DNA of 64,000 bases from an uncultured Acidobacteriota bacterium (GCA_963733815.1 CAVTEG010000014.1:38861-102860); one strand, 5' to 3'. Numbered from the stretch's first letter, positions 12,130-37,222 are shown. Notes: generated by a model from the letters alone, not told the origin. A program made the numbers and translations.

Positions 12130-12560
12130 TACATGTCCACAACCTTCATCGTGAGTTTCAGTGTCCGCCGAGCTGGAGGTGGTGGCTCTTTTCATATGCG
12201 TCGATTCTCGCCTCTATGGCCTTGAATCTAGCGACGCTCGCTCGTGGAGCGGGCGGAATGGAAACCGGAGACTCGGCCCATCTCGACCTCGCCGAGGTCC
12301 ACTTTTCTGCCCGGACGACGGGCGCGGATTGAAGCCGCGACGGAACGTTACTCATATCGACCTTTCTGAAAGCCTTCAGGAGGATGCTCTCACTCGATCC
12401 GGGGCCGCATCTGATGCAAAGGCATCAAAGGATTCCGGGCTTATCGGCTCAGATGAGCGCAAATGATTACCACCTGCCGCTGATATCCAAACCATCAAGG
12501 CCGGACGCCTACTGTACAGCGATACCATCTGCAAAAACGCCCTCGTGTTTGTGATTGTTC
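12130..12560 (-). repeat. Copy 1 of a ~430-bp duplicated cassette (structured leader + 65-aa ORF + first 6 codons of a second ORF)
   Basis: Aligns base for base with 36812..37222 (offset 24,682 nt in the ORF part), roughly 90% identical by eye. Homology stops at 'tacatgtccac' on the left and 'gtgattgttc' on the right. Confidence 0.9.
12158..12355 (-). CDS. Conserved 65-aa hypothetical protein (cassette copy 1)
   Basis: ATG is preceded by GAAAGG. Compared with copy 2, four of the core substitutions (12194, 12230, 12287, 12311) are third-position synonymous in this frame. The other frames are not conserved: the plus-strand frame carries a stop in copy 2. Confidence 0.6.
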   Translation of the reverse strand: MSNVPSRLQSAPVVRAEKWTSARSRWAESPVSIPPAPRASVARFKAIEARIDAYEKSHHLQLGGH

Positions 12561-12600
12561 TCGTCTGCCGTGTAGGCCGGTCCGCGCCGGTGTCCGTGAA

Positions 12601-12693
12601 TTAGCCCAGAACAGCCCGTAGAAGGCTTATCGCCGTCTCCGGAGGCCACGGCCTAAACGTCTCGTACGAGCTACCTGCGAAGTTCTGGGCTAA
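12601..12693. repeat. 93-nt hairpin element with 12-bp perfect inverted termini (TTAGCCCAGAAC ... GTTCTGGGCTAA)
   Basis: Arms at 12601-12612 and 12682-12693 are exact reverse complements. The interior contains CTCCGGAG and GGCC palindromes. There is no ORF. Confidence 0.7.
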
Positions 12694-12767
12694 CGCGAGC
12701 GCATCAACCCGCTCTCTGGCCCGGGTCGCTTTGCGTGCAGGGCTGCATCGCCCGGAGAATCCGACTT

Positions 12768-12793
12768 GGCCTGCCCGCGGGCCCTTTTTTTTT
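12768..12793 (+). terminator. Putative intrinsic terminator (GC-rich palindrome GCCCGCGGGC + T9) with no upstream plus-strand gene
   Basis: Nine consecutive T at 12785-12793 directly follow a GC-rich palindrome. It lies 20 nt before the start of the ndvB-like gene. Confidence 0.45.
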
Positions 12794-12812
12794 GCGTGGT
12801 AAGAAGAGCGTA

Positions 12813-15800
12813 ATGCGAGCGCCCGACCTCGCCCATTCGGTCAGAGCTCTTCTCGACGGAGCACCTGGAGCAGTTTGCCGGCGCCCTCGCGGCCGAGCAT
12901 CTCGTCTTTCCGGGAAAGAGGCGCGGCCGGCGGCTGCTGCCGCGCCTGCGCGAGAACGCCAGGGTCCTGGTGCATTCGCAACGGCTGATCGCGGAGGCGA
13001 GCCGGCAGACTCGCTCCGATCTCCCCCGCGGCCGAGTGGCTGCTGAACAACTTCCACATCGTCGAGGAGCAGATCCGCGAGATTCAGGAGGATCTGCCTC
13101 CCGGGTTCTATCGCGAGCTGCCCAAGCTCGCGTCCGGAGAGCTCAAGGACTTTCCGCGCGTTTACGCGCTCGCCTGGGAATTCGTATCCCACACCGACAG
13201 CCGAATCGAGCTCGAGACGCTCGGGCGGTTCGTCCGTGCCTATCAACGCGTACAGCCGCTCACGATCGGGGAGCTGTGGGCCCTGGCGATCTCCCTGCGC
13301 CTCGTGCTCGTGGAGAATTTACGGCGCATGGCGGAGGGCGTGGCCGCGCGAGGCATCGCGCGGGATCATGCGGATGCCGTCGCCGACGCGCAGCTGGGCA
13401 CCGACGGCGCCCCGAAGCCCGGACCGGCGGCCATGATCCAGATGCTCGAGCAGCGGCCGTTCACGAAGGCCTTCGCGGTGCAGCTCGCCCAGAGGCTTCG
13501 CGAGCAGGATCCCGCGGTCACGCCGGCGCTCGACTGGCTCGACCGACGGCTCGCCCGGGAGGGCACCACGACCGACGAGATCGTTCACACCGAGCACCAG
13601 GCCCAGGTCGCCACCCATGCCACGGTGCGCAACGTCATCACCAGCATGCGGCTGCTGTCGGCCGTCAACTGGGCGGATTTCTTCGAGAGCGTCAGCCTGG
13701 TTCACGAGGCGCTCTGCGCGGGCACGCGCGTCGCCGAAATGGACTTCGCGACCCGGGACCGCTACCGGCACGCGGTCGAGGAGCTCTCGCGAGGCTGCGC
13801 GCAGGACGAGGTCGAGGTGGCGCGCGGGGCCGTCCGCATGGCGCTCGACGCGCAGGCCTCGTCCTCCCGACGCGCCGTCCTTCGAGCCGCGCCTGGCCGA
13901 CCCGGGCTACTACCTCATCTCCAGGGGCCGCTCGCGTCTCGAATGCGGTGCTGGAGTACCGGTTGCCCGCGCGCCAGTGGCTGCGCCGCGACGTGGTTCC
14001 AGCGCGGCGGCTCCCCTCTACCTGTCCTCGATCGTCCTCTGGACCGCCGCGATCCTCGCCGTCCCGGTCTCGGTGGCCGCGGCCGCGGGCGACCCCGATT
14101 GCTCTCGCTCCTCCTCACCCTCCTCGCCCTCGTCCCGGCCTCGGATCTGGCGACCAGCCTCGTCCAACGGTTCGTCACGGAGCTCGTCGGTCCGCGCCGC
14201 CTTCCCAAGCTCGAGCTCGCCGGCGGGGTCCCGGAGGGCTCGACGCACCCTCGTCGCCGTCCCGATGCTCCTGACCGACGAGTCCGACATCCGCGACGTC
14301 GTCCAGCGGCTGGAGGTGCATTACCTGGGCAATCCGGATCCGGAGCTCCGGTTCGCGCTGCTGTCGGATTGGTCGGACGCGCCCTCGGAGAGCCTGCCCG
14401 AGGACCAGGCCCTCCTCGACGTCGCGCGCGCCGCGATCCGAGAGCTCAACGAGGAGCACGGCAGCGCGGCGGGTGGCGGCGACCGATTCTGGGTCTTCCA
14501 CCGCCGGCGCCTCTGGAACCCGAGCGAGGGGGCCTGGATGGGGTGGGAGCGCAAGCGCGGGAAGCTCCGCGAGCTGAATCGGCTCCTTCGAGGCGCGACG
14601 GACACGTCCTTTCTTCCGCAGGATCACGGCGCGGCCCCGCCCTCCGGAGTCCGCTACGTCGTGACGCTCGACGCGGACACCCGCCTGCCGCGAGAGGCCG
14701 TGCGCCGGATGGTGGGCACGATCTCCCATCCGCTGAATCTCCCGATCTTCGATGCCGCGGCCGGTCGCGTCGTCGACGGGCACGCGATCCTGCAGCCGCG
14801 CGTGACTCCGACCCTCGCCGAAACCGGGTGGGGAACGATCTTCCAGCTCGTCTTCTCGGGACCCCGCGGCATCGATCCCTACGCCTTCGCGGTGTCGGAC
14901 GTTTACCAGGACCTCTTCGGCGAAGGCATCTACACCGGCAAGGGAATCTACGAGGTGGACGTCTTCGAGAGAGCGCTCGGCGAGCGCGTCCCCGAGAACA
15001 CGCAGCTCTCGCACGATCTCTTCGAGGGCCTCTTCGCCCGAGCCGGATTCGCCTCCGACGTCGAGCTCTTCGAGGGATTTCCGGGTCACTACGAGGTGGC
15101 CGCGTCGCGCCAGCACCGGTGGGTCCGGGGGGACTGGCAGCTGCTGCCGTGGATTCTGGGAACGCGGCCCCATGGCAGGCCGTGCGGCCGGCTCCATCCC
15201 CATCATGGGGCGGTGGAAAATGCTCGACAACCTCCGCCGCAGCCTCTCGGCGCCCGCGATGCTCGCGACCCTGCTCGCCGGGTGGTGCCTGCCGAAGGCG
15301 AGCCCGAGGCTCTGGACGCTCTTCGTGCTCGCCGATTCTCTCGCTTACCGACGCTCCTCTCGTTCTTCACGAACCTCGTTCCGAACCGCCGCGGCATCGC
15401 CAAGCGGAGCTTCGTGCGCGGCGTCGTGGCGGATCTGGCCGTCGGCCTCGCGCAGTCGGCTCTCCGAGTCGTCTTCCTCGCCCACACCGCCTGGCTCCGG
15501 ACTGGACGCGATCGCGCGGACACTCTGGCGGGTGGCGGTGACGCGGCGCCGGCTGCTGGAGTGGGTGCCCGGCGGCGCAGTCGCTGCGCGACGTTGGACC
15601 TGGAGGCTTACGGGTTTTTACCGTCGCATGCGCTCGGCCCTCGGGGTCGCCGCGGTGGCGGCGCTTCCTGGTCGCCGCGTCCGGGCAAAGGCCTCCTGGC
15701 CATGGGCCGTGCCCTTCCTGGCCTGCTGGCTCGTCTCGCCGCTGGTTGCCTGGTGGGTCAGCCAGCCGCCGCGGGAGATCGACGGCGCCCAGATCGACGA

Positions 15801-18800
15801 GGCCCAGGCGCGCGAAGCTGCGCCTGATCGCCCGTCGAACCTGGCGTTACTTCGAGCGGTTCGGGGGGCCCGATTCCCATGGCCTCCCGGCCGACAATTT
15901 TCAGGAGGTGCCGCGAGCCGCAAGTCGCCCCGCGAACCTCGCCGACCAACATCGGGCTCGCGCTTCTGTCGACGGTCGCCGCCAACGACTTCGGCTGGAT
16001 CGGAACCGGCGAAATGGTGGAGCGGATGGAGGCGACGTTCGCGACGATGGCAAAGCTCGAACGGTATCGAGGCCACTTCTTCAACTGGTACGACACCGAG
16101 AGCCTTCTGCCGCTGGAGCCCCGCTACGTCTCCACGGTCGACAGCGGGAATCTCGCCGGGCATCTGATCGCCTTCCGAAATGCGTGTCTGGATCGATTGG
16201 AGGAGCCCGCCTCGATCGAGCGGGCGCTTGCCGGGCGTCGCGGCAGCGCTCGATCATCCTGCGCGAGACCGCGGCGGCGGTATCCGAGCGGAATCGGGAG
16301 CCGCGTCGTTACGTATCGCCAGCTGGAAGAGGCCGTTCGCGAGACCGCCGCGCTCCTCTCGCCGGCGCCCGCGTCGCCGGACGAATGGGCGGAGCGTCTT
16401 CGGGCGCTGTCGTGCCGCGCCGAGATCCTGGTCGACATCGGTCTCGCGCTCGTGCAGGAAGGCGGAAGGTCCGAGGCGGAGCGCCGTGCTCGAGTGGGCG
16501 AGGGCGGTTCGCGATTGCGTCGGCGAGCCATGCGCGCGACTCCGGGAGCAAAGCAAGGCGCCGAGGGTGAGGAGGCGTTCGCCCGAAGGAGCTCTCCTCC
16601 ATCGCCGCCACCGCGGCGACGCATGGCGCAGGAGATGGATTTCGCGTTCCTCTACGATTCCGGTCTCGCGAGCTCTTCGCGATCGGCTATCGCATGTCCG
16701 ACGGCACATTGGACCCCGGGCCACTACGACCTGCTCGCATCGGAAGCGCGCCTGGCCAGCTTCGTCGCGATCGCGCTCGGTGACGTGCCGGTCGAGCACT
16801 GGTTTCACCTCGGCCGCCCCTTGACCCCGGTCGGGCGCGGTTCGGCGCTGATGTCGTGGTCGGGATCGATGTTCGAGTACTTGATGCCGGACCTCGTTCT
16901 CGAGGCCCCACCCGCGAGCCTGCTCGAGCAGACCAATCGGCTCGCCGTGCGCCGCCAGATCCGTTACGGAGAGGAGCGGGGCGTTCCCTGGGGAACCTCC
17001 GAGGCGGCCTACAACGCGCGGGACGTCCAATTCACCTACCAGTATTCCAACTTCGGCGTCAGCGGCCTGGGGTTGAAGCGCGGCCTTTCGGAGGATCTGG
17101 TGGTGGCCCCTTATGCCACAGCGTTGGCTGCCATGGTCGAGCCGGTCGAGGCGCTGGAGAATTTCGAGCGCCTGGCCTCGATCGGCGCGCTCGGTCGGTA
17201 CGGGTACTACGAGTCGATTGATTACACGCCGACCCGGGTCCCGGAGGGCGCGGCCTTTGCGATCGTTCGCGCGTTCATGGCCCACCATCAGGGAATGACG
17301 ATCGTTGCGCTCGCGAACGTGCTGTTGGGATCCGTGATGCGCGGGCGCTTTCGGGACGAGCCGGCCGTTCAGGCTACCGAGCTCCTGCTCCAGGAACGCA
17401 CGCCCCGCACCGTGGCGGTCGCGCGCCCCGATCGGCGAAGGGGAGCTGCGGCTCCACGTGCGCGATGAGGTTCCGCCGGTTCTGCGGCGATTCCGATCGC
17501 CGCACGATCCGACGCCCCGCACGCATCTGCTGTCCAACGGCGGGTACTCGGTGATGATGACCGCCGCGGGCTCCGGCTACAGCCGCTGGCGGGGGCTCGA
17601 CGTGACGCGCTGGCGGGAGGACACGACGCGCGACGCCTGGGGGACTTTCGTGTTCTTAGCGACGGGGAGTCCGGTCAAGACGTGGTCGGCCGGATATCAA
17701 CCGGCGGGAGTCGAGCCCGACCAGTACGACGCCATCTATTCGGAAGACCGCGTCGAGATCCACCGACGGGACGGTGACCATCGCGACGAGCCTGCGGACC
17801 GTCGTTTCGACGGAGGACGACGCGGAAATGCGGCAAATATCGCTGACGAACTTCGGGTCTGCGCGCCCGAGAGATCGACATCACTTCGTATGCGGAGATC
17901 GTTCTCGCTCCCTCCGCGGCCGATGCCGCTCATCCGGCGTTCTCGAACCTCTTCGTCCAGACCCAGTTCGTCCCCGAGATCGAGGCCCTGCTGGCCAGCC
18001 GCCGGCCTCGCGATCGCGAGGAGCCGGTCTGGGCGGCACACGTGATGACGGTGCACGGCGAGTTCGTCGGCATGCTGCAGTACGACACGGATCGCGCGCG
18101 CTTCCTGGGGCGGGGCCGCCGATCCGTCATCCGAGCGCCGATCGAGGATCGCCGGCCGCTGTCGAATACGGTCGGCACGGTCCTGGATCCGATCTTCAGC
18201 ATTCGTCGCCGCCTCCGCCTCGCCCCCGGCGCCACGGCACGGGTGCAACTTGCGCTGATGGCGGCCGACACCCGCGAAGGCGCCGATCGCCCTGGCCGAC
18301 AAGTACCGGGACCCCGCGATCTTCGAGCGTGTCTCCAACCTGGCGTGGACGCAGGCCCAGGTCCAACTGCGGCATCTCGGGATCACGAGCGACGAGGCGC
18401 ACCTGTTCCAACGCGTCGCCACCCGCATCCTCTACTCCGATCCCACGTTGCGCGCTCCGGTGGAGACCCTGATCCGCAACCGCCGGGGGCCGTCGGCTCT
18501 CTGGAGACATGGAATCTCCGGCGATCGTCCGATCGTGCTCGTGCGGATCGACCAGGTCGACGACCAGGGAATCGTGCGGCAGCTGTTGCGCGCCCACGAG
18601 TACTGGAGACTGAAAGGGCTGAGCGGTGGATCTGGTCATCGTCAACGAATCGCCCGCCTCCTACTCTCCGGAGCTCGGCACCGCGCTCGAGTCTCTCGTT
18701 CGCGCCGGAGTCCGCGCATTCGGCGTCGCGACGGAGCACACGGTGGGGGAGGTCTTCGTGCTGCGCGGGGAGCTGCTTTCGGGCGAGGAGCGCGACGCGC

Positions 18801-21531: not shown

Positions 21532-22218
21532 TCACACGGGAGCGGGCCGTCCGATCAGGTTGTGCTGGTACGCAAACACCACGGCCGCGAGCTTGCTGTG
21601 GACTTGGAGCTTGATCAGGATTTTGCTCACATGGTTGCGAACGGTGACCTCCGCGATGGAAAGCGCTTCGCCGATCTCAGCGGACCTCAACCCACGGCCA
21701 AGGCCCTGCAGCACTTCCGTCTCGCGGCACGTCAGCGTGATCGTGCCCCCGTCGGGAGTTCGGGCCGGTTCCAGCGAGTCCATGTCCATGGAACGGCCTT
21801 TCGTTTCGCTGGCCGACCGCCGTATTTCGGGTTCCCGGCAAATGTGCACGAGAGTGGCCAATGCCGGATGGTAAGACTCGATCGCGAAGAGAGAAGTGGC
21901 AATTGTCTTTCTCGACCCGTCGCCGGTCTTGACCTCGAGTTCGAAGGGACAAACGTGATGATCCCGTCCGGTCCGCGCCTGACCCGCCACAGGGCAGCTC
22001 AGTTGGCAGTAGTGGTTCCCGTTGGCGTCCCGGCCGTCCAGGACCTCGTAGCATCGTTTTCCCATGACGGCTCTCGCGGGCTGGCCAAAGAGCGCCTCGG
22101 AAGCCTTGTTCCAATGGATGATGCGATTGCTCGCGTCCATCGCAAACATCGCCTCACCCCGGCGGGAGATGGCATCCAGCGTCTCATGGAGTGGTCCCAT
22201 CGAGCCCCTTGCGGCCAT
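21532..22218 (-). CDS. PAS-domain LuxR-family transcriptional regulator
   Basis: PAS-like N-terminal region ('AMFAMDASNRIIHWNKASEALFG') plus a C-terminal LuxR HTH ('LTCRETEVLQGLGRGLRSAEIGEALSIAEVTVRNHVSKILIKLQV'). I prefer the ATG at 22218, because the 22257 'M' is a TTG inside the upstream motif. Confidence 0.8.
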   Translation of the reverse strand: MAARGSMGPLHETLDAISRRGEAMFAMDASNRIIHWNKASEALFGQPARAVMGKRCYEVLDGRDANGNHYCQLSCPVAGQARTGRDHHVCPFELEVKTGDGSRKTIATSLFAIESYHPALATLVHICREPEIRRSASETKGRSMDMDSLEPARTPDGGTITLTCRETEVLQGLGRGLRSAEIGEALSIAEVTVRNHVSKILIKLQVHSKLAAVVFAYQHNLIGRPAPV

Positions 22219-22251
22219 CACGTCGCAGATTACAAGCCGCCGCGGAACGGC

Positions 22252-22282
22252 GTCCAATCGTTTGTTCTACTCGATTCAAGGC
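22252..22282 (-). promoter_or_regulatory. Conserved element copy a (minus strand: cttgaatcgagtagAACAAACGATTGGAC)
   Basis: TTGGAC at 22257-22252, a 17-nt spacer, then TGTAAT at 22234-22229. The regulator ATG is 10 nt further on. Confidence 0.6.
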
Positions 22283-22353
22283 GTCGTAACGATCGACCGT
22301 CGCGCCCGGAAGCCGGGCCCTGCGCGCTGCTCTCCCGCTTCCGATTTTTCACG

Positions 22354-22383
22354 TCTCAAATCGAGAGGAACAAACGATTGGAA
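22354..22383 (+). promoter_or_regulatory. Conserved element copy b (tctcaaatcgagaggAACAAACGATTGGAA)
   Basis: Divergent from copy a, about 100 bp away. An ATG at 22403 begins 19 nt after the TTGGAA hexamer. Confidence 0.55.
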
Positions 22384-22461
22384 GGAAAGCGCCGGAGCGT
22401 ACATGATCCGCTCGTCGATGAAGACTCTCGGAACGAGAAGGGACAAGACACGGAAACCGTA

Positions 22462-22679: not shown

Positions 22680-23408
22680 GTGAGAGCGGGATCGCTCGGC
22701 CGGTCATCCCGGGTCTCCAGGGGCCACGCGGAAGGGCACCGCACCGGGCGCATCGGCTGGTTGCGCGCGGCCGTGCTGGGCGCCAACGACGGCATCGTCT
22801 CCACGGCGAGTCTCGTGCTCGGTGTCGCTGCCGCGCATGCGAGCCACAGCAACGTCCTGGTCGCCGGAGTCGCGGGCCTCGTCGCCGGGGCTATGTCGAT
22901 GGCTGCCGGCGAGTACGTGTCCGTTCACTCGCAGGCAGATAGCGAGCAAGCGGCGCTCGAGCTCGAGCGGGCGGAGCTGAAGGCGGACGACGAGGGCGAG
23001 CGCTCGGAATTGGCGGCCATCTACGTCGCTCGCGGTCTCGACCGGTCGCTCGCCAGGCAGGTCGCCGATCAGCTGATGGCCCGCGACGCGCTCGGCGCGC
23101 ATGCTCGCGACGAGCTCGGCATCTCCGACACCTTCCGCGCTCGCCCGATTCAGGCGGCGCTGGCGTCGGCGGCGAGCTTTGCGGTGGGAGCAGCCATGCC
23201 TCTGTTGGTCACCGTGATGGCCCCCCCGGCCGGGTTGATCGCGCTCGTCTCGGGGACGTCTCTTCTGTTCCTCGCGCTTCTCGGCGGCCTGGCGGCGCGC
23301 GTGGGCGGCGCCGGCGTGCTCAAAGGCGCGCTGCGTGTCACGTTCTGGGGTGCGCTGGCCATGGCGCTGACCGCGGGAGTCGGGGCGCTGTTCGGGACGG
23401 CGGCCTAG
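22680..23408 (+). CDS. VIT1/CCC1-family iron/manganese transporter
   Basis: Contains 'WLRAAVLGANDGIVSTASLVLGVAAA' and 'AMSMAAGEYVSV', with a C-terminal triple-TM region. Intact, 242 aa, GTG start. Confidence 0.8.
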   Translation: MRAGSLGRSSRVSRGHAEGHRTGRIGWLRAAVLGANDGIVSTASLVLGVAAAHASHSNVLVAGVAGLVAGAMSMAAGEYVSVHSQADSEQAALELERAELKADDEGERSELAAIYVARGLDRSLARQVADQLMARDALGAHARDELGISDTFRARPIQAALASAASFAVGAAMPLLVTVMAPPAGLIALVSGTSLLFLALLGGLAARVGGAGVLKGALRVTFWGALAMALTAGVGALFGTAA

Positions 23409-23531
23409 GCGGCCTCCCGGCGTGGGGGACCACCACGCCAACCCGGCGCGTGGTCTGAGCCCGGACCTTCGTACCGAAGCGCCGTCGGCTCTGGATGACG
23501 GCAGGTGCGATCCGAGTCGATCGATTTGGCG

Positions 23532-23561
23532 TCACGAACTGAGCGTAAACAACGATTGGAC
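23532..23561 (+). promoter_or_regulatory. Conserved element copy c (tcacgaactgagcgtAAACAACGATTGGAC)
   Basis: One base shorter in the A-run. An ATG at 23581 begins 19 nt after TTGGAC. The next real gene starts at 23635. Confidence 0.5.
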
Positions 23562-26270: not shown

Positions 26271-26416
26271 CGTCATCTCGTATGTAGTAGTCCTATGTGG
26301 TAGTCTCCGGGTGGTTCAATAGGTCGGGTCGGCTTCGAAACCTTGTCGTCGCCGTTCTTACCGTCGGGTTCTCCGACTCAGAATCATCGCTTTCAAGGAC
26401 TGTGGAGTTCACTGTC

Positions 26417-26722
26417 ATGAGATTCGCACGAAACGTCCATTTTCAGATCAAGAACGGTAAAGAACAGGAATTCAAGACTCTCCTCGAGAAGAAGGTCATC
26501 CCGATGCTCCGGAAGGAGAAGGGGTTTCTCGAAGAGCTGACGCTGGTCAACAAAGACGGCGCCCTCGGAATCAGCCTTTGGGAAGACCGCAAGAACGCCG
26601 AGGCCTATCAGTCGTCGACGTATCCCAAGGTTGTCGAGATCCTGCAGCCGGTGCTCGTCGGAACACCGAGGCTCGAGACATACGAGGTGACTGTCACGAC
26701 TCTCGAGTTCGTCACGGCTTGA
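26417..26722 (+). CDS. Small ABM-like protein, paralog of 4359..4661
   Basis: 'MRFARNVHFQIKNGKEQEFKTLLEKKVIPMLRKEKGFLEELTLVN...GISLWEDRKNAEAYQSSTYP', about 60% identical to the 4359 ORF by eye. Confidence 0.7.
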   Translation: MRFARNVHFQIKNGKEQEFKTLLEKKVIPMLRKEKGFLEELTLVNKDGALGISLWEDRKNAEAYQSSTYPKVVEILQPVLVGTPRLETYEVTVTTLEFVTA

Positions 26723-26757
26723 TTCAGAGATTCGGCGCGGCGACGCGCCGATGGTTC

Positions 26758-26787
26758 AGAGGCCCCGAAAGGGGCCTCTTCTTTTTC
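26758..26787 (+). terminator. Rho-independent terminator (AGAGGCCCC-gaaa-GGGGCCTCT + T-tract)
   Basis: Same GGCCCCGAAAGGGGCC core as the terminator at 4693. Confidence 0.8.
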
Positions 26788-26933
26788 TCCCTCCGTGCTG
26801 TCCCGGATGATCGCGAGGGCCAACGGCCGATGTGTGATAACGTGTGGATTCCGACTCCTCCGGATGGACCGACTCCCCAAGACAATTGAGTGGCCCCCCG
26901 CCGGTCTCGGCGAAGAAAGTGGGGTTTTGGATC

Positions 26934-27212
26934 ATGGCTACCGAGTTCAAACGACTAAGCTGTGCAATCTGCGGACATCCGTTGGATTCCGACTGGCTCC
27001 AGGATCAGGTCAGAACTTGTGAAGCATGTGCGGCGTCTTCGCGGCGCCGTAAGGGGACAGTGCTTCGCCACTGGACCACCAATGGCCCGGCCTTCGTAGG
27101 GAAGGCGACCACGGCAGTTGCAGTGGGCGACTGGGGCCTGGCCGATTCCCGGCGGATCAGCCTGATCGGGTCGAAGCTGAAGTCGCTCGCGAGCGGGGCC
27201 GGTGCACTATGA
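26934..27212 (+). CDS. Small zinc-ribbon protein (SCAICG...CEAC)
   Basis: 92-aa ORF in a locally lower-GC stretch. Its stop overlaps the next ORF's start as ATGA. Confidence 0.4.
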   Translation: MATEFKRLSCAICGHPLDSDWLQDQVRTCEACAASSRRRKGTVLRHWTTNGPAFVGKATTAVAVGDWGLADSRRISLIGSKLKSLASGAGAL

Positions 27213-27457
27213 CGTCCCTCCTCCGACGTTGGAACTGCCGCAACTGCGGCCGGCACAACAAGACCGCAGTGGCGCGCGACGGGACCGCAAAGTGCGAGTA
27301 CTGTACAGACACGGCCGAAGTTCACCCCCTCTACCCATGGGGACCGAAACTGTATCGGTTCGCGTCGAGCCTTCTGTCCTCACTCACGAGAGGCTCGGGT
27401 TGTATTCACTGGCGGCGGGTCCTGGCGCCAGTCAGGACATGGAGGCCGAACCGCTAA
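27209..27457 (+). CDS. Small zinc-ribbon protein (WNCRNCG...CEYC)
   Basis: 82-aa ORF coupled to the preceding ORF by an ATGA overlap. It has the W-x-C-x2-C ... C-x2-C pattern seen in other mini-ORFs of this window. Confidence 0.4.
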   Translation: MTSLLRRWNCRNCGRHNKTAVARDGTAKCEYCTDTAEVHPLYPWGPKLYRFASSLLSSLTRGSGCIHWRRVLAPVRTWRPNR

Positions 27458-28190: not shown

Positions 28191-28229
28191 CGAGCCGCAG
28201 TAACCCCTTTTCAGCCAATCGACGCGTCG

Positions 28230-28265: not shown

Positions 28266-29250
28266 GGGGTCGCTTGCGGCTCGGCCGGGCCCAGAGCCGA
28301 ACGGCCCGTGGCTTCGAGGGAGCGGCCATTCTTCTCCCGGCGCCGGCCGGGACGTCCGGCTGTCGGCGAGGAGTGAGTCGGATCTCGTGAAGGAATGAGG
28401 CCAACAGCGGCGAGAGGTCGTCCTGCCGGTAGATTACCCCGGATTCGGTGAACACTTCGCGGTCCTCGATGTCACGGAAGACGACCCCCGGCATCGCCCG
28501 CAGCTTGATCGCCGGGTCGACGAGGGCGATCGTCAAACCCGCGGCGACCATGCCCAGCACAGTCTCGGTTGAGGGGAGCCCGCCTTCCATCGTGATCGGC
28601 GGGCCGAACCCGGCGAGCTGAAAAATCGCCGACAGGTGGTCGTAGGAGCCCGGCGACAGGTGCCGGGGCCAGAGCGTGTAGGCTTCTTTGGACAGGTCTC
28701 GTAGCCCGATGCGGTCCCGGCGAGCCACGGGATGCTGTTCCGAGATTGCGGCCACGAGTCTCTCGCGCGCGGTGACTTCGCTGGCGATGCCCTCCGCCTC
28801 GATCGGCAGTCCCACGAATCCGATGTCGATGAGACCCTCGCGCAGCGCCGCGATCTGGGCCTCGGGTGTCAGGTTCTGAAAAAGAACCTCGACCGAGGAG
28901 GCGTGCTCCCGGAAGAGCCGCAGCGCACTGCCGAGAAACGCCCAATCCGTTTCCGGGGAAATGCCGATCACGATCTTCCGGAACTCTTCGCGCGCCGCCT
29001 CTCTCGCCAAGCCGGCCGCACGCTCGGCCGCGGCCAGGATCTCGCGCGACTCCTGGAGAAACCGCTTCCCGGCCGGCGTGAGCTCGACGTGCCGTTTGAC
29101 GCGCCGCAGCAGGTCGACTTTGAGCTCCTTTTCGAGATTTCGGATCTGCTGACTCAGCGACGATTGCGAGGTGTGCAGACGGTTCGCGGCGCGGCCGAAA
29201 TGGAGTTCCTCGGCGACCCCGACGAAATATCGAAGATGACGAAGCTCCAT
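28243..29250 (-). CDS. LysR-family transcriptional regulator
   Basis: 'MELRHLRYFVGVAEELHFGRAANRLHTSQSSLSQQIRNLEKEL' winged HTH plus a substrate-binding domain. The basic C-terminal tail may be a read-through artefact. Confidence 0.85.
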   Translation of the reverse strand: MELRHLRYFVGVAEELHFGRAANRLHTSQSSLSQQIRNLEKELKVDLLRRVKRHVELTPAGKRFLQESREILAAAERAAGLAREAAREEFRKIVIGISPETDWAFLGSALRLFREHASSVEVLFQNLTPEAQIAALREGLIDIGFVGLPIEAEGIASEVTARERLVAAISEQHPVARRDRIGLRDLSKEAYTLWPRHLSPGSYDHLSAIFQLAGFGPPITMEGGLPSTETVLGMVAAGLTIALVDPAIKLRAMPGVVFRDIEDREVFTESGVIYRQDDLSPLLASFLHEIRLTPRRQPDVPAGAGRRMAAPSKPRAVRLWARPSRKRPQKKSAGR

Positions 29251-29275
29251 AAGATCCTCTTTGATCGTTAGGCGG

Positions 29276-29305
29276 GCTGAATTCTATCGGAACAAACGAT
29301 TGGAC
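29276..29305 (+). promoter_or_regulatory. Conserved element copy d (gctgaattctatcggAACAAACGATTGGAC)
   Basis: Lies in the LysR/DsbA-like divergent intergenic region. An ATG at 29325 begins 19 nt after TTGGAC and opens a 31-codon ORF ending at the dsbA-like start region. Confidence 0.55.
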
Positions 29306-29410
29306 CTGCGCCGGCCAGGCGCCCATGCTCGTTCTCCGGGATCTCAAAGGCCTCCGAGGGAAGCTCCGGCGGTCTTGGACCGAAATTCCGCTTCCTGACC
29401 CCGGTGAAAG

Positions 29411-29965
29411 GTGCAAATGAAGAAAATGAATCGGGCGCGAAAGCTCGAGTCCCCGGTCTCTTCGAAGGACCACGTCCGGGGGTCCCCGCTCGCGAAGGTC
29501 ACTCTCGTCGGTTATGGAGACTTCACGTGCCCGGACTGTGCGAAAGCGTATCGAGACGTCAAGAAGATCCAGGCGGAAATGGGCTCCCGGCTCCGCTACG
29601 TCTTCCGCAGCTTTCCTCAAGACTCCCTTGACGAGAAGTCCGAGAGCTCCGCCGAAGCAGCGGAGTCCGCTGGGGCCCAGGGAAAGTTCTGGGAGATCCA
29701 CGATCGGATGTTCGAGAACCAGCGCGCTTCGACCCAGCTTCAGTTGGCCAAGCACGCCAGGGCGGTCGGCCTGGATGCCCGTCAGTTTCGGCGAGACATG
29801 CGGGGACACGTTCATCTGGCGAGGGTTCGCGTGGTGCGGAAAGAAGGCGTTCGGAGCGGCGTCGTTGAGGTTCCAACCTTCTTCATCAATTCCCTGCAAC
29901 ACGAGAGTGCGTTCGGTCTGGCGACGTTGCTCCCGGCAGTCCAGGCTGCGGCAGGCGGCTCGTGA
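29411..29965 (+). CDS. DsbA-family thioredoxin-fold protein (CPDC active site)
   Basis: Contains 'VTLVGYGDFTCPDCAKAY' and 'VPTFFIN'. Intact, 184 aa. Confidence 0.8.
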   Translation: MQMKKMNRARKLESPVSSKDHVRGSPLAKVTLVGYGDFTCPDCAKAYRDVKKIQAEMGSRLRYVFRSFPQDSLDEKSESSAEAAESAGAQGKFWEIHDRMFENQRASTQLQLAKHARAVGLDARQFRRDMRGHVHLARVRVVRKEGVRSGVVEVPTFFINSLQHESAFGLATLLPAVQAAAGGS

Positions 29966-30281
29966 TGACTTGCGCCTCGGTGCATCGGGCGGCGCTGTCG
30001 GCGACTCGGAGGGGCCATGGACGAAACACGCAATCACGAAGGATCGAGTGACGAGGCGAAGCAGCCGAATCCCCGAGATGCTCAAGGGTTCAAAGAGAAT
30101 CCGGCACCTAGGGACTGAAGACGCCGCCTCCGTTCCCGGAGGGCGAGGACTCCGGCGAATGGACCCGGGGCGGGGGTTCGAACGCGGCGGGCGGCCAAGG
30201 CGAAGGTCAGCGCAAGCGGTCCACGACGTAGATGCACTCTCGATTCGAGCGGCGAGCGAAGCGGCATCGATCGTTGCTTCG

Positions 30282-30311
30282 TCTGAAGTCGAGCGAAGAA
30301 AACGATTGGAC
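30282..30311 (+). promoter_or_regulatory. Conserved element copy e (tctgaagtcgagcgaAGAAAACGATTGGAC)
   Basis: Lies in an ORF-poor stretch. An ATG at 30335 begins 23 nt after TTGGAC and opens a 28-codon ORF. Confidence 0.5.
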
Positions 30312-30485
30312 GGCGCGAACTTCCTTCGCCGACAATGGAGAACCACCCGGCAAAACCCGGGAACTCTTCCAAAAGCCGCGCGCCCCGCACCGGGGGCGTT
30401 AGCGGCCCTTCCTTGTTCTGAGTTCTGAGCTCGGTTTTGAGATTCGATTCTGCCGCTCAGTGACGACTCTTCAATCGCTCTGAGG

Positions 30486-30515
30486 TCTCAACGCCAGCGA
30501 AACAAACGATTGGAT
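30486..30515 (+). promoter_or_regulatory. Conserved element copy f (tctcaacgccagcgaAACAAACGATTGGAT)
   Basis: An ATG at 30535 begins 19 nt after TTGGAT and opens a 17-codon ORF. The desaturase fragment starts at 30665. Confidence 0.5.
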
Positions 30516-30664
30516 CTGCTCTCGCCGGCGCCACATGATCGAGACGCCCACCACATTTCAGTGCGAGGCCAGGATGGAGCGCACGTGACAACGAACAAAC
30601 AGAGCAGACCAGCCGCCCGGCAACGCTCTCCGAGCCGTCGTTGCGGGATTGGGAGGGAAGGTTC

Positions 30665-30990
30665 GTGATTCGCAGGATCGAAAGGCCTTCCGAGATCGCC
30701 AATCCCGTACAGGGAAGTCGGAGAAGCTGGGTCAACATCCTGTTCCTTTCGCTGACTCCAGTCATTGGCATCGTGGGCACCGCGGCCTATGCAATCGCTT
30801 TCGGGGTCCGCTGGTGGGAGCCTGCGCTCTTCGTCGTGCTCTTCGGTCTCGTGAGCTTTTCCGTGACGGCGGGCTACCACCGCTGCTTCGCACACAAGGC
30901 CTACGTCTGCCACCCGGCCGTTCAGGTCTTCTATCTCTTCTTCGGAGCCATGGCCCTTCAGAATTCTGCCCTGAAGTGGTCCCCACTGGC
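30665..30990 (+). pseudogene. Acyl-CoA (delta-9-type) fatty-acid desaturase, N-terminal ~110 aa only
   Basis: Contains 'WVNILFLSLTPVIGIVG', 'TAGYHRCFAHKAY' (first His box) and 'FFGAMALQNSALKW'. Homology then ends before the second His box. The frame runs on without a stop into the BON gene. Confidence 0.65.
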
Positions 30991-31051
30991 GGTTCCGATC
31001 GACCCGGATTTGCCCCGTCGACGGAGCCGCTCGGAAAGATCAGAGGAACTC

Positions 31052-31375
31052 ATGAATCGTCGTACCCGAGGAATCCTGACGGTTGCCGTCACCATCACGC
31101 TCGCCCTGTTGGTCGTGGGCTGCTCGACGACCCAGACCGCGGGCCGCCAGATCGACGACACCAGCATTCACGCCGCCGTCTCGGCGAAGCTCACCTCCGA
31201 ACGCTTCTCGAACATCGTGAACATCGACATCAACGTGACCAACGGCATCGTGACGCTGGCCGGAGAGGTCCCGAACGCTCAGGTCAAGGCCGACGCGCAG
31301 AAAGAGACCCGTAAGGTCGACGGGGTCGTCCGGGTAATCAACAATCTCCAGGTCAAGTCGCCTCCGACCGCCTGA
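31052..31375 (+). CDS. BON-domain lipoprotein (OsmY-like)
   Basis: Lipobox 'LALLVVGCSTT', then 'VTNGIVTLAGEVPNAQVKADAQKETRKVDGVVRVINNLQV'. AGAGGAA ribosome-binding site before the ATG at 31052. Confidence 0.8.
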   Translation: MNRRTRGILTVAVTITLALLVVGCSTTQTAGRQIDDTSIHAAVSAKLTSERFSNIVNIDINVTNGIVTLAGEVPNAQVKADAQKETRKVDGVVRVINNLQVKSPPTA

Positions 31376-31399
31376 CCTGTCGCTGATTTCCAGTCTTTC

Positions 31400-31430
31400 G
31401 CCGAGCCGGCTTCCGGCTCGGCGTTTCTTT
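31400..31430 (+). terminator. Rho-independent terminator (GCCGAGCCG-gcttc-CGGCTCGGC + gTTTcTTT)
   Basis: 9-bp perfect stem 25 nt after the BON stop. Confidence 0.8.
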
Positions 31431-31603
31431 GCCCTGCAAGATGCTGGAACCCGAGCTCGTGCGGCCGGCGACGGAGTCCCGGAACGAATCGGTGTCGCAC
31501 CCATCCGGAAACCTCGTAGCGGCTGCGCGGTCCGCCTCGGAGACGATCCACGGCGTTCGCATCTCCAACCCCGACGAGCGCGACCTGGCCGGGTCGCCAG
31601 CGA

Positions 31604-31630
31604 TTAGCACTCTCGATCAGGGAGTGCTGA
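31604..31630 (+). promoter_or_regulatory. CIRCE operator (HrcA binding site) upstream of groES
   Basis: TTAGCACTC-tcgatcagg-GAGTGCTGA matches the consensus TTAGCACTC-N9-GAGTGCTAA at 17 of 18 positions. Confidence 0.9.
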
Positions 31631-31705
31631 TATGGGAACCCGACGCGCCCCCGGATCCGCGAGTGCGCCGGACCCACAAAACACAACGGATTCAGGAGGA
31701 ACGTC

Positions 31706-31996
31706 ATGAAGATTCGGCCACTTTACGATCGGATTCTGGTCAAGCGGCTCGAGACCGGCGAGATGAAGAAGGGCGGCATCATCATCCCGGACACCGCCAA
31801 GGAGAAGCCGATGGAAGCGGAGGTCGTCGCCGTCGGCAAGGGAAAGATCAACGAGGAAGGCAAGCAGCTTCCCCTGGACGTCAAGAAGGGCGACCGCATT
31901 CTCATCGGCAAGTACGCCGGCACCGAAATCAAAATCCACGATGAAGAGCACCTTATCCTCAAGGAGGAGGAAGTGCTCGCGGTCGTCGAGAAGTAA
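31706..31996 (+). CDS. groES: Co-chaperonin GroES
   Basis: '[16 protein letters not shown]...[13 protein letters not shown]', 96 aa. AGGAGGAA ribosome-binding site. Confidence 0.97.
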
Positions 31997-33646
<1,650 letters not shown>

Positions 33647-33671
33647 GGAATCCCTTTGGTATTCATTTCGA

Positions 33672-33699
33672 GCCCCGGCGAAAGCCGGGGCCTTTTTTT
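33672..33699 (+). terminator. Rho-independent terminator after groEL (GCCCCGGC-gaaa-GCCGGGGC + T7)
   Basis: 8-bp GC stem, GAAA loop, seven T. Confidence 0.85.
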
Positions 33700-33987
33700 G
33701 TCCCGACCATACTGCTCACGCGCGATGGAGCCCCTGCTGAGCCCGCCCGCCCGGGCCGACAATTGGTCCAGCTGGCGGCCTCGTGCGAATCGGCTTATTG
33801 AGGCCTCAGAGCGTCCATTTCCGCGGCGAGGGTTCCAGCACCAAACTGGGCGGCTCCCTTGTAGCCGCCCGGTAGAGCGAAAGTCGGGCGATCTCCAGCC
33901 GATTCGGATCGACTCCAGGCGAATCGACGCCAAGGGGAAGCCGCGGATTCACGGATCTCTTCGCGCCCTGTCGACGATCGGCGAGGT

Positions 33988-34032
33988 CTCATGACCCAAA
34001 GGTCGGAGGTTCAAATCCTCCCCCCGCAACCA
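33988..34032 (+). pseudogene. 3' half of an initiator-type tRNA-Met (anticodon loop CTCATGA to CCA); the 5' half is absent
   Basis: Variable loop AGGTC, T-arm GGAGG-TTCAAAT-CCTCC and acceptor 3' strand CCCCGCA+A+CCA, the last as in bacterial tRNA-fMet. The ~45 nt upstream have no D-arm, no CGCGGGG acceptor strand and no pairing partner for the anticodon stem. Confidence 0.6.
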
Positions 34033-34042
34033 TGATGATTAG

Positions 34043-34079
34043 ACGCCGGGAGGAAGCTCCCGGCGTTTCGTTTGTTTCT
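34043..34079 (+). terminator. Rho-independent terminator following the tRNA remnant (ACGCCGGGAG-gaag-CTCCCGGCGT + T-rich tail)
   Basis: 10-bp perfect stem followed by TTCGTTTGTTTCT. Confidence 0.8.
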
Positions 34080-34087
34080 GCCCAGGT

Positions 34088-34181
34088 GTCATCCCGAGCG
34101 AAGCGAGGGATCCCGGACTGGATGAGCCGCAGTCCGAATCAAGACTCGGGATCCCTCAATCGCTGCGCTCCTCGGGATGAC
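34088..34181. repeat. 94-nt imperfect palindrome (REP/MITE-like or structured RNA)
   Basis: Three nested stems. Outer: GTCATCCCGAG ... CTCGGGATGAC. Middle: GAGGGATCCCG ... CGGGATCCCTC. Inner: GGACTG ... CAGTCC. Confidence 0.7.
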
Positions 34182-34256
34182 AGGCCCCGAAGCGGGCGAC
34201 AAATCGGCCGTCCGGCAGAAGGCGGGGTGACGCGCATCGCATGCTAGGCTTTCGCT

Positions 34257-36782
34257 GTGCGGTCGCGCCCCGCGCTCATCACGCTCCTTGCGGTCCTCGT
34301 TGCATGCGTGCCCGCGGCGGGATCGGCGGGATCGGCGGGATCGGGCTACGACAAGCCGCCGCAGAACGTGCTCGACGTGCTGCACGCGCCTGCGCTGCCG
34401 AATCCGTACGTGAGCCCGACGCGCGACCGGATCCTTCTCGTGGCGTGGGTCTGGTACCCGCCCATCGCGCAGGTCGCGGAGCCGTTCCTCAAGCTCGCGG
34501 GCGTGCGCGTCGAGCCGCGGACGCGGCGCAAGCACGACACTCCCGGCGGTTACGGAATCGCGCCTTGCGCGCAGACGCTGACGCTCGTCGACGTTGCCAC
34601 CAGCCGCGAGGTCCCGGTGACGCTGCCGCCGGATGGCTGCGTGGATGGCGTCGTGTGGGCCGCCGACGGGCGGCGGTTCGCTTTCCGAAACACCTCAAAG
34701 GATGCCGTGCGAGCTATGGATCGGCGACGCCGCCACGGGCGCGATTCGGCGCCTCGGCGCCGCGCGGCTGAACCCGATGCTGGGGAGCGCGCTGCAATGG
34801 ATGCCCGACCAGAAGACGCTCCTCGTGAAGCTCGTGCCGGCGAACGCCGGGACGGCTCCTGCGGCGGCCGTCGAGTCCGACGGCCCGAGCATCCAGGAGA
34901 CGACCGGCGAGACCGGCGAGAGCAGTACCTACGAGACGCGCGACACGCTTTCGAACAAGCACGACGAGGACCTCTTCGACTACTACGCGGCCAGCCATCT
35001 CGCCTTCGTCGATGCGGACTCGGGTGCGATCACGCCGCTGGGCGCCCCGGCGATCATCACCGAGGTCGATCCCTCGCCCGATGGTCAGTAACCTTCGTGT
35101 GACCACCATTCACAAGCCGTACTCGTACGTCACCACGTACCCGAATTTCGCGCACGACGTGGAGCTCTGGGACCGAACTGGCCGCAAGATCCACACGCTC
35201 GCGAAGCTGCCCCTCGCGGACCGCGTACCGATCGCCGGAGTGCCGACCGGCCCCCGCGATTTCGAGTGGCGTCCGACGGAACCGGCGACGCTCGTCTGGG
35301 CCGAGGCGCTCGACGGCGGCGACTGGAACGTCAATGTCCCCGCACGCGACAAGGTCATGACGCTCGGCGCGCCGTTCACGCGGCGCGGCCGCCGAGATCG
35401 CCCGTACCGAGCAGCGGTTCGTCGGCTACGAATGGTGCGAGCGGCGCGGCGTGGCCTTGCTCCACGAGTACGACGAGAACAAGCACTGGCAGCGCACCTT
35501 CCTCGCGGACGTCGACCATCCGGCGACCAAGCCGAGTCTGGTGTGGGACATGTCGAGCGACGAGCGCTACAAGGACCCCGGTCAGCCGGTCTACAAGACG
35601 CTGCCGAACGGGCAGCGGGTCGTGCGGCAGGATGGCTCCGCGATCTTCCTCCGGGGCGAGGGAGCGTCCGTCGACGGGGATCGGCCGTTCCTCGATCGCT
35701 TTGACCTGGAGTCGCGCAAGTCCGTGCGGTTGTTCCGCAGCGACAAGACCGCCCTCGAGACCTTTCTGGCGTTCACCGACGCCAGCGGCCGCGCGTTCCT
35801 GACGTGGCACCAGTCGCCGACGGATCCTCCCAACGCGATGGTCCGCACGCTGGGCAAGCCGCTCCCGTCGCCGAAACCCGGTGAGCCCGCGGTCGCTTCG
35901 ACGGCGCGCGCCGTAACTCACATCCCGGATCCCACGCCTGCGGTGCGCTCCGTCAAGCAGCGCCTGGTCACCTACCAGCGCAAGGACGGCACGCCGCTCT
36001 CGTTCACCCTTCTCACGCCGCCCGGCTACAAAGAGGGCACGCGCATCCCGGCGATCCTGTACGCGTATCCGCTCGACTACGCGAGCACCTCGACGGCCGG
36101 GCAGATCAGCGGCTCGGAGCGGGAGTTCATGCGCATCGACGACTACCGCCTGCTGCTTCTTTCCGGGTACGCGATCCTCGACAACGCCGCGTTCCCGATC
36201 GTCGGCGATCCGAAGCAGGCGTACGACACGTACCTCGAGCAACTCGTCGAAGACGCCCGCGCGGCCGTCGACACCGCCGTCGGGACGGGAGTCGTCGATC
36301 GCGACCGGATCGGCGTCACCGGCCACAGCCACGGCGCGCTGATGACGGCGAATCTGATCGCCCACACCGACTTCTTCCGCGCCGGTGTGGCGACCAGCGG
36401 CTCGTACAACAAGACGCTCACGCCGTTCGGGTTCCAGAACGAGCGCCGCTCCGTCTGGAAGGGCCAGAGCGTGTACCTTCAGGTCTCGCCGTTCTTCTTC
36501 GCCGACAAGATCAAGCTGCCGCTGCTGATCATGCACGGCGCCGACGACGCGAACCCGGGCACGACGCCGCTCCAGGCCGTCAAGCTCTACGAGGCGATCC
36601 GCGGCAACGGCGGAACGGCGCGGCTCGTGATGCTGCCGCACGAGCCGCACTGGTACGCGGCGATGGAGTCCAATGAGCAGCTCGCGTACGAGGAGCTGCG
36701 CTGGTTCGACACGTACGTCAAGAACGCGCCACCCGGTGGGAAGGCCGCAGAGCCCAAGGCTCCGGCCGCGGCGAAACCTTAG
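34257..36782 (+). pseudogene. S9-family serine peptidase (prolyl oligopeptidase / glutamyl endopeptidase-like) with several frameshifts in the N-terminal propeller half
   Basis: Pieces lie in ORFs 34257, 34633, 35012 and 35451. The C-terminal catalytic domain is intact ('IGVTGHSHGALMTANL', 'LLIMHGADDAN', 'MLPHEPHWY'). Signal peptide at the N-terminus. Confidence 0.75.
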
Positions 36783-36811
36783 AGCAACTGGGGCATTCAG
36801 CAGCCAGCGCT

Positions 36812-37222
36812 TACATGTCCACGACCTTCATCGTGAGTTTCAGTGTCCGCCAGGCTGGAGGTGGTGGCTCTTTTCGTATGCGTCGATTCTCGCCTCTATG
36901 GCCTTGAATCTGGCGACGCTCGCTCGTGGAGCTAGCGGAATGGAAGCCGGAGACTCGGCCCATCTCGATCTCGCCGAGGTCCACTTTTCTGCGCGGACGA
37001 CGGGCGCGGATTGAAGCGGCAACGGAACGTCAGTCATATCGACCTTTCTGAAGCCTTCAGGAGGATGCTCTCACTCGATCCATCAAAGGGCTCCGAGCTT
37101 ATCGGCTCAAATGAGCGCAGATGATTACCATCTGCCGCTGATATCCAAACCATCAAGGCCGAAAGACCTACTGTATACGGATACCATCTGCAAAAACACA
37201 CTTACGTATGTGATTGTTCCAT
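36812..37222 (-). repeat. Copy 2 of the ~430-bp duplicated cassette
   Basis: See 12130..12560. It lacks the ~23-nt hairpin insertion present in copy 1. Confidence 0.9.
36840..37037 (-). CDS. Conserved 65-aa hypothetical protein (cassette copy 2)
   Basis: 'MTDVPLPLQSAPVVRAEKWTSARSRWAESPASIPLAPRASVARFKAIEARIDAYEKSHHLQPGGH', with the same ribosome-binding site and hairpin context as copy 1. Confidence 0.6.
   Translation of the reverse strand: MTDVPLPLQSAPVVRAEKWTSARSRWAESPASIPLAPRASVARFKAIEARIDAYEKSHHLQPGGH

Follow-up and report, generated by a model that had tools for sequence, protein, structure and literature searches.

The 64,000-nucleotide (nt) stretch of DNA from an uncultured Acidobacteriota bacterium that was analyzed here (GCA_963733815.1 CAVTEG010000014.1:38861-102860, hereafter called the window) carries on its minus strand two direct copies of a unit of about 430 bp, each consisting of an upstream region of roughly 200 nt, an open reading frame (ORF) of 65 amino acids and a short tail behind the stop codon. 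It appears likely that these repeats are paralogous copies of a complete small-gene unit that arose by plain dispersed duplication, with neither an RNA thermometer or riboswitch in their leaders nor an island between them. An earlier reading of the same DNA, the first-pass annotation, had regarded the upstream region as a structured leader sequestering the Shine-Dalgarno (SD) sequence and the unit as the 5′ end of an operon cut by recombination.

With respect to the repeat itself, the first-pass annotation was accurate. Pairwise alignment yielded a copy 1 of 434 nt (12127-12560) and a copy 2 of 414 nt (36809-37222), and a repeat finder applied to the window returned the three collinear direct-repeat families D2 (12127-12370/36809-37052), D7 (12423-12503/37081-37161), and D12 (12508-12560/37167-37219). 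The copies, whose identity had been estimated by eye at about 90%, agree at 376 of 407 aligned positions (92%; leader 164/181, ORF 182/195, 3′ tail 30/31), the gaps between them being one 23-nt indel (12401-12423 in copy 1) and two 1-nt indels. The sharp homology borders described earlier were recovered as well: the alignment breaks off abruptly at both ends, the flanks of the copies are unrelated, and no inverted repeats were found at the borders of either copy. Copy 1 has a dodecin gene on one side and an ndvB-like gene on the other, whereas the genes on the two sides of copy 2 encode an S9 peptidase and a SET-domain protein. Because the copies differ at 31 positions and sit in different gene contexts, an assembly duplication, which had been named as a possible objection, is ruled out. 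As described before, each copy carries its 65-amino-acid ORF behind the leader, and both ORFs are intact. The parts of the unit are as follows.

12127-12560, minus strand: copy 1 of the unit (upstream region, 65-amino-acid ORF, 31-nt tail), the ancestral locus
36809-37222, minus strand: copy 2 of the unit, derived, without the 23-nt segment bearing the family-wide motif
12158-12355, minus strand: small-protein gene of copy 1, 65 amino acids plus stop, MSNVPSRLQSAPVVRAEKWTSARSRWAESPVSIPPAPRASVARFKAIEARIDAYEKSHHLQLGGH
36840-37037, minus strand: small-protein gene of copy 2, 65 amino acids plus stop, sharing 89% of its residues with copy 1
12361-12366, minus strand: SD sequence GAAAGG of copy 1 (GAAAGG or GAAGGG is kept across the short-N-terminus subfamily)
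37043-37048, minus strand: SD sequence GAAAGG of copy 2
12127-12157, minus strand: conserved 31-nt tail behind the stop codon of copy 1, holding the mini-ORF MKVVDM
36809-36839, minus strand: 31-nt tail behind the stop codon of copy 2, in which the mini-ORF terminates at a TAA within the conserved part

That the 65-amino-acid ORF is a real, conserved gene was borne out by family searches, by an excess of third-position changes and by the ratio of non-synonymous to synonymous substitution rates (dN/dS). The search of the peptide, which had been proposed as a check, recovered relatives with a conserved ORF: a word-indexed search of 5.8 billion proteins gave one relative (P0001, 83% identity), and a profile-based search against 1.84 billion cluster representatives gave 11 clusters (defined at 50% identity) of 65-162 amino acids at E<=1e-3. 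When 185,579 species genomes were scanned with two peptide patterns, a single locus, L003, turned up in an Acidobacteria metagenome-assembled genome (MAG), and a metagenome scan found three further loci (L004-L006). Relatives are present in about 14 independent loci, one of them in the Acidobacteria MAG and the rest on metagenome contigs. All members share the C-terminal motif (A/P)x(K/R)ASVARFKAIEARIxAYxK, which both window ORFs carry as well, with profile search scores of E=1e-39 to 5e-4. When the DNA of the motif region was compared among distant members, half of the minor-allele cells fell on third codon positions, while the peptide remained constant (ASVARFKAIEARI). No relative of the small protein was found in Pfam, NCBIfam, PADLOC, or the PDB, the best Pfam match (YnhH-like, E=0.16) being noise. 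Judged by these sequence comparisons, the small gene belongs to an undescribed family of 65-85-amino-acid proteins, known here from soil metagenome contigs and one Acidobacteria MAG. With its own SD sequence, coding-type substitutions, a helix next to a disordered region and a tendency to be left uncalled by gene finders, it resembles the conserved hypothetical small proteins (mu-proteins). Unlike the known mu-proteins, this family has no Pfam, NCBIfam, or PDB relative and is known here only from soil metagenomes and one Acidobacteria MAG.

Between the two window ORFs, six synonymous and seven non-synonymous differences were counted by the Nei-Gojobori method, a count that corrects the four synonymous changes in the ORF core reported in the first-pass annotation. 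The clustering of amino-acid changes in the first seven residues, reported there as well, holds for four of the seven differences, the others being V31A, P35L, and L62P. The dN/dS ratio is 0.36 over the whole ORF and 0.12 for residues 8-57, and that of the core in comparison to the ortholog in L001, the closest sampled relative, is 0.25, the comparisons comprising 13-24 differences per pair. By this substitution pattern, the ORF core of both window copies is under purifying selection. In addition, a contig from a soil metatranscriptome spans 12134-12355.

An AlphaFold model based on the family alignment predicts a single helix (residues 38-62) with a predicted local distance difference test (pLDDT) score of about 90 and low confidence for the rest, and according to this model the N-terminal half of the small protein is probably disordered. 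The C-terminal helix is amphipathic and carries the nearly invariant ASVARFKAIEARIxAY. A DNA-binding domain is not predicted in the model.

The comparison with the relatives also bears on both ends of the window ORF. Its ATG corresponds to an internal methionine of those members that bear a 12-residue N-terminal extension (MxxFQxxE...), and the proposed SD-sequestering hairpin CCTGAAGGCTTTCAGAAAGG aligns to the start codon and the first codons of L014, L015, L016, L004, and L018. At the other end, the TGA stop of the window reads TCA in L001, where the ORF continues for four codons, and the 31-nt tail is, as judged by eye, similar to the longer C-terminal tails (GGD-SSW...) of relatives. The second ORF that the first-pass annotation had placed nine nt behind the stop codon (MKVVDM) exists as a short ORF, at a spacing of 8 nt, and is not the beginning of a second operon gene: it lies within the 31-nt tail and does not correspond to the start of the gene found downstream in relatives.

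This downstream gene, called the partner here, encodes 103-120 amino acids (around 105) and follows the small gene on its 3′ side in three independent relatives (L007-9, L011-12, and L014), starting anywhere from a 4-nt overlap to 47 nt downstream (-4 to +47). The partner proteins form a family of their own with 22 members, for which no relatives were found in Pfam, PADLOC, or the PDB. Their predicted structure is a two-helix hairpin (pLDDT 83), and a fold search with it gave generic coiled-coil matches alone, all at E>1. In the window, tblastn with three partner proteins gave nothing below E=0.6, and the downstream flanks of the copies have no significant nucleotide similarity to the partner. 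The repeat ends 31 nt past the stop codon, which is approximately the position where the partner starts in relatives. Because of this coincidence, together with the missing partner, the idea of a truncated operon put forward in the first-pass annotation gains support; the three relatives do possess the downstream gene that the window lacks, although no remnant of the partner was found in the flanks. The downstream flank of copy 1 was also considered as a decayed partner, as it contains an ATGTAC... resembling the partner start of L011 and L007; tblastn and nucleotide alignment were no better than with shuffled sequences, leaving it as an unproven lead. In some loci the partner is found alone behind a long conserved leader, and in L021-L030 (2485-3471) the next gene upstream of such a lone partner and its leader encodes a protein of 328 amino acids in which a Y1 transposase-like part is joined to a DnaA C-terminal domain.

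The layout of the relatives raises the question whether the gene pair is a toxin-antitoxin (TA)-like module, with the window copies as orphan 'antitoxins' and a palindrome upstream of the small gene as the operator. As in type II TA systems and orphan antitoxins, a small first gene, whose product combines a disordered part with a docking helix, is followed by a slightly larger second gene, which starts either within 47 nt or with a 4-nt overlap, and a palindrome is located upstream. The distribution is patchy, the neighboring genes vary, one partner is often missing, and three of the approximately 14 loci lie beside tRNA-Met, transfer-messenger RNA (tmRNA), or selenocysteine tRNA (tRNA-SeC). 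Nevertheless, we consider a TA-like module improbable. No relation to any TA family was seen in sequence or fold: Pfam and PADLOC returned no TA or defence family for either protein, and PDB sequence searches and the fold search with the partner gave no significant match. The partner, a plain hairpin of helices, lacks a toxin-like fold such as that of a nuclease or kinase, the small protein has no predicted DNA-binding fold, and the occurrence of the partner alone behind a long conserved leader would be unusual for a toxin.

The second question concerns the leader, which the first-pass annotation had interpreted as a cis-acting riboregulator, either an RNA thermometer or a riboswitch expression platform, hiding the SD sequence until a signal is received. 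An extended hairpin of the leader is located as follows in the two copies.

12446-12493, minus strand: lineage-specific extended hairpin in the leader of copy 1, inner stem GCAGGUG/CAUUUGC at 12459-12477
37104-37151, minus strand: extended hairpin in the leader of copy 2, inner stem GCAGAUG/CAUCUGC at 37117-37135

The differences between the leaders had been listed correctly, both the stem change from GCAGGTG/CATTTGC in copy 1 to GCAGATG/CATCTGC in copy 2 and the loop changes in GCTC-aYct-GAGC and CTGAA-ggc(t)-TTCAG. In favor of a riboregulator, hairpins that pair the GAAAGG can be drawn (CCUCCUGAA...UUCAGAAAGG), which, beside or overlapping the SD sequence and a few nt before the AUG, recall the arrangement of thermometers of the ROSE and fourU types and of riboswitch platforms. 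A long-range CGGCCUU/AAGGUCG helix, which pairs the GAAAGG as well, shows one G.U to G-C change in L001, and the inner stem GCAGRUG/CAYYUGC of the central hairpin is paired in all four haplotypes (copy 1, G.U and G.U; copy 2, G-C and A-U; L001, G-C and G-C; soil variant, G-C and G.U). The calculated energy needed to open the SD sequence also drops with temperature, although it does so for any helix.

The remaining observations do not support this interpretation. Opening of the SD sequence and AUG would cost 7.2-7.4 kcal/mol in the three leaders examined, as compared to 5.8-6.8 +/- 2.1-2.5 kcal/mol for upstream parts with shuffled dinucleotides, of which 22-34% reach values as high. Folding z-scores of the two leaders are weak (-1.4 and -2.4), and RNAalifold found double changes in 2 of 67 predicted pairs; apart from the inner stem, the changes in the leader stems are transitions, which give wobble pairs almost automatically. 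L001 disrupts the local SD hairpin by an A.C mismatch and a gap and departs from the CCUCC anti-SD sequence, and the SD-proximal stretch was coding sequence in the past of the family. The 140 nt upstream of an 18-nt motif described below are common to copy 1, copy 2, and L001 alone, that is, they are limited to the lineage of the window. Leader divergence (K) is 0.10 between the copies and 0.15 and 0.13 between each copy and L001, whereas the ORF dS for the same comparisons is 0.14, 0.19, and 0.20, with 0.18 for the orthologous flank outside the unit. The leader has thus changed about 0.7 times as fast as the synonymous sites and, as this is close to neutral, the similarity of the leaders is mostly explained by recent duplication. 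Losses of sequence are tolerated as well: copy 2 does without the 23-nt segment, and in soil variants a deletion of 10 nt has removed the GCUC/GAGC hairpin. Finally, the Rfam check of the leader, as proposed in the first-pass annotation, returned no match to the cassette at E<=5, nor at the gathering score, in the window and seven related loci. Since opening energy, z-scores, the ortholog, the soil deletions, Rfam, and leader divergence are all unsupportive, the thermometer and riboswitch readings were rejected, and a riboregulator of this kind is very unlikely; it would also differ from known thermometers and riboswitches in having no aptamer-like core across the family. An additional candidate, the leader as a series of diverged tandem copies of the 18-nt motif, was dismissed, as 74 of 500 shuffles matched the local alignment score. 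MAFFT and nhmmer found no homology at the cassette between the leader of the window and the long conserved leader of L007/L010/L011, the sole feature shared by both being the ACGGCAGACG box at the 5′ border.

In contrast to the rest of the leader, one upstream element is common to the whole family.

12411-12428, minus strand: family-wide upstream motif TTGATGCCTTTGCATCAG, a hairpin or palindrome with a 6-bp stem and a YUUU loop, in copy 1 only

Copy 2 lacks the segment equivalent to 12401-12423 of copy 1 and hence the 18-nt motif. The 'extra' 23-nt insert of copy 1, for which a hairpin had been proposed, is therefore a genuine length difference, yet the direction of the change has to be reversed: the motif is ancestral and was deleted in copy 2. 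It is located 35-55 nt before the start codon in 10 independent loci, irrespective of the reading frame, occurs once in the window and was encountered in the fetched loci upstream of the small gene alone, which marks it as a cis element specific to this gene. When the motif is written as a 6-bp hairpin, pairing is kept in 93% of the cells. Six changes affect one side of the stem alone, and each of them allows a G.U pair on the sense strand but not on the opposite one; one pair varies between C-G, U.G, and G.U, and a further soil variant adds another U.G. These features would fit an upstream region holding functional RNA elements of another kind, in which the 18-nt hairpin serves as a stability element of the 5′ untranslated region or as a protein-binding site, possibly for autoregulation by the small protein. 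This is possible, albeit less likely than not. Double changes are limited to one pair, and shuffling of the columns gave a covariation score at least as high in 44 of 500 cases; L017 and L018 contain a mismatch in the middle of the stem; a DNA operator for a dimeric regulator predicts the same sequence conservation; and copy 2 has kept a selected ORF despite the loss of the motif. On balance we lean slightly toward the motif acting as RNA rather than as a DNA operator. Sigma-54 and Fur/MerR-type readings of the motif were discarded by eye because of unfit spacing.

At the 5′ border of the unit, copy 1, copy 2, and L001 share two conserved blocks separated by a variable spacer of 11 nt, and GGAAC-N17-YGTT is, by its sequence, a possible promoter of the extracytoplasmic function (ECF) sigma factor type.

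12536-12562, minus strand: possible ECF-sigma-like promoter of copy 1, GAGAAC-N17-CGTT, at the 5′ border
37195-37220, minus strand: possible promoter of copy 2, GGAAC-N17-TGTT, where homology between the copies starts exactly

GGAAC-N16-18-CGTT is not enriched as a regulon signal (two matches in the window versus 1.7 expected), and a scan for the sigma-70 consensus detected no promoter in either copy.

Concerning the history of the locus, L001 is collinear with window positions 14359-12127 at 82-86% identity. Since this covers its upstream flank, copy 1 represents the ancestral locus, and since the ndvB-like gene adjoins the unit in L001 too, the junction of this gene with the unit is ancestral as well. 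The 3′ border (12127/36809 in the window) falls within about 5 nt of the position where synteny with L001 breaks off (L001 2131-2132), and three different downstream contexts start at this point, with no recombination signal found. The first-pass annotation had noted that the copies bracket a block including a tRNA remnant. This did not hold up: ARAGORN found no tRNA gene in the window, no tRNA-like Rfam match appeared at E<=0.5, GC content and skew are flat across 12.6-36.8 kb, and nothing marks this block as an island.

It could still be argued that the unit of 434 nt is a cassette that is mobile or recombines site-specifically, and that its direct copies bracket an inserted island of 24.7 kb. 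Its borders are sharp, the synteny break coincides with the 3′ border, relatives adjoin genes for tRNA and tmRNA, L004 showing a tRNA fragment in addition, and the window contains two further pairs of dispersed direct duplicates, whose members lie 20-22 kb apart. In its single short ORF, its size of about 430 bp, its sharp borders and its occurrence twice in direct orientation, the unit is also reminiscent of integron gene cassettes. Such a cassette or island is nonetheless very unlikely. In contrast to integron cassettes, the unit contains around 200 nt of upstream sequence, lacks an attC-type imperfect inverted repeat at its 3′ end and a GTTRRRY core at its borders, and has no integrase next to either copy; in contrast to insertion sequences and miniature inverted-repeat transposable elements, it has no terminal inverted repeats and its flanks are unrelated. 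No attC-like element or target duplication was found at the borders of the copies, no integrase or transposase was identified among the ORFs scanned beside them (the interior of the 24.7-kb block was not scanned or annotated), and blastn against a plasmid collection gave no match. Added to this are the missing tRNA remnant, the absence of a GC or skew shift and the ancestral junction with the ndvB-like gene, and a divergence of 8% between the copies, which is unlike that of fresh att duplications. As an observation on the relatives, the small gene lies 0.2-0.9 kb downstream of tRNA-Met with an adjoining inverted tRNA 3′ fragment (L004, 590-666), tmRNA (L006, 1-274), and tRNA-SeC (L014, 501-600), Rfam across the related loci giving tRNA and tmRNA matches in L004 and L006. 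This adjacency, seen in three of about 14 independent loci, is above chance expectation, and the small gene may often be situated at integration hot spots of islands.

Taken together, a dispersed duplication at the DNA level would postdate the separation from the closest relative sampled (dS of about 0.14). In the ancestral state, the small gene would have been the first cistron of a two-gene operon, as it is in several relatives, and the window copies would be orphaned derivatives in which the start moved to an internal methionine, a stop codon cut off the C-terminal tail and the partner gene was lost. The small protein might dock its amphipathic helix onto another protein and serve, much like an antitoxin, as a small adaptor or inhibitor; the target would ancestrally have been the helical-hairpin partner and in the window may be something else or nothing. 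Expression would be set by the gene's own upstream region, of which the 18-nt hairpin or palindrome is the only family-wide element. Because copy 2 has lost this element, the two copies are probably regulated differently.

Several points weigh against this interpretation. We infer the docking or adaptor role from predicted architecture alone, and the missing database relatives of the small protein and the generic matches of the partner fold give no hint at a function. The dN/dS ratios depend on few differences, and the support for expression consists of one short metatranscriptome contig from a related strain, covering the copy 1 region. The coincidence of the 3′ border with the synteny break is not predicted by a random duplication. 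In the inner stem of the leader hairpin there is one true compensatory path (A-U/G.U/G-C), which, together with the wobble-compatible changes of the 18-nt motif, leaves room for a functional RNA structure, as the tests cover 3-10 sequences.

With this gene, a soil phylum that has received little study gains a family of small proteins that had not been annotated, and its 'structured leader' is a case in point of a sequence that is largely recently duplicated and partly former coding sequence. The weight of the finding would grow if the small protein and its partner proved to be a new regulatory or TA-like pair, or the upstream elements new RNA motifs.

In this respect, a conserved intergenic region of about 240-300 nt deserves mention, which precedes the small gene and/or the partner in several loci (L007 245-485, L010 402-640, L011 6-241, L021 3696-3941, and L031 5718-5946) and has a divergent Zn-ribbon gene on its other side. 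It contains long invariant blocks, such as TTCGCTAGGCTCCCTGCCAG and CCTGACAGACCCCAACGAAAAGGCG, has no Rfam match and is a candidate for a new RNA motif or a complex control region. The window itself contains at 26833-26923 (minus strand) a 90-nt element that corresponds to the first third of this region (nhmmer, E=7e-9) and abuts, as in the related loci, a divergently oriented CxxC...CxxC Zn-ribbon ORF at its start codon (ORFs at 26934-27212 and 27209-27457, plus strand), the second window Zn-ribbon ORF being similar to the 65-amino-acid one of L021 and L031. The 90-nt element has no Rfam or Pfam match and little covariation. One could speculate that the small protein, the helical-hairpin partner, the divergent 65-amino-acid Zn-ribbon gene and the 240-300-nt region form one undescribed, Acidobacteria-specific regulatory module, which we regard as rather unlikely. 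If it were true, the 18-nt hairpin would be an RNA or DNA site of self-control and the orphan copies would be spare regulators, one of which has escaped control.

Apart from the duplicated unit, the window contains a repeat with six members, located at 22248-22296 (minus strand) and at 22341-22383, 23519-23561, 29263-29305, 30269-30311, and 30473-30515 (plus strand). Its consensus is GATCGTT-N~24-(G)AACAAACGATTGGAC, followed about 18 nt further on by CATG(A/C)T, and it sits 70-300 nt upstream of genes at 21532-22257 (minus strand) and at 22680, 23635, 29411, and 30641 (plus strand). From its sequence it looks like a shared promoter (-35 TTGGAC, -10 CATGAT) combined with an inverted-repeat operator, defining a small regulon in the 'stress cluster'.

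Among the other dispersed direct duplicates, 40421-40917 and 60865-61363 (approximately 530 nt, about 90% identity, 20.4 kb apart) look, from reading their translation, like a gene for a small membrane protein, and the 40-kb copy carries a frameshifting 2-nt deletion, which probably makes it a pseudogene. Older paralogs encoding an antibiotic biosynthesis monooxygenase-like (ABM) domain are found at 4290-4714 and 26297-26780; they are in direct orientation, around 77% identical and 22 kb apart, and both are followed by the same GAGGCCCCGAAAGGGGCCTC terminator hairpin. A CyVA-1 RNA motif at 8395-8469 (plus strand; 47.4 bits, E=1e-7) is the sole Rfam match above the gathering score in the window. 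Finally, an encapsulin shell protein (Linocin_M18) is encoded at 38465-39262 (minus strand) directly downstream of a DyP-type peroxidase (39259-40272, minus strand), which corresponds to a classical encapsulin-cargo operon.

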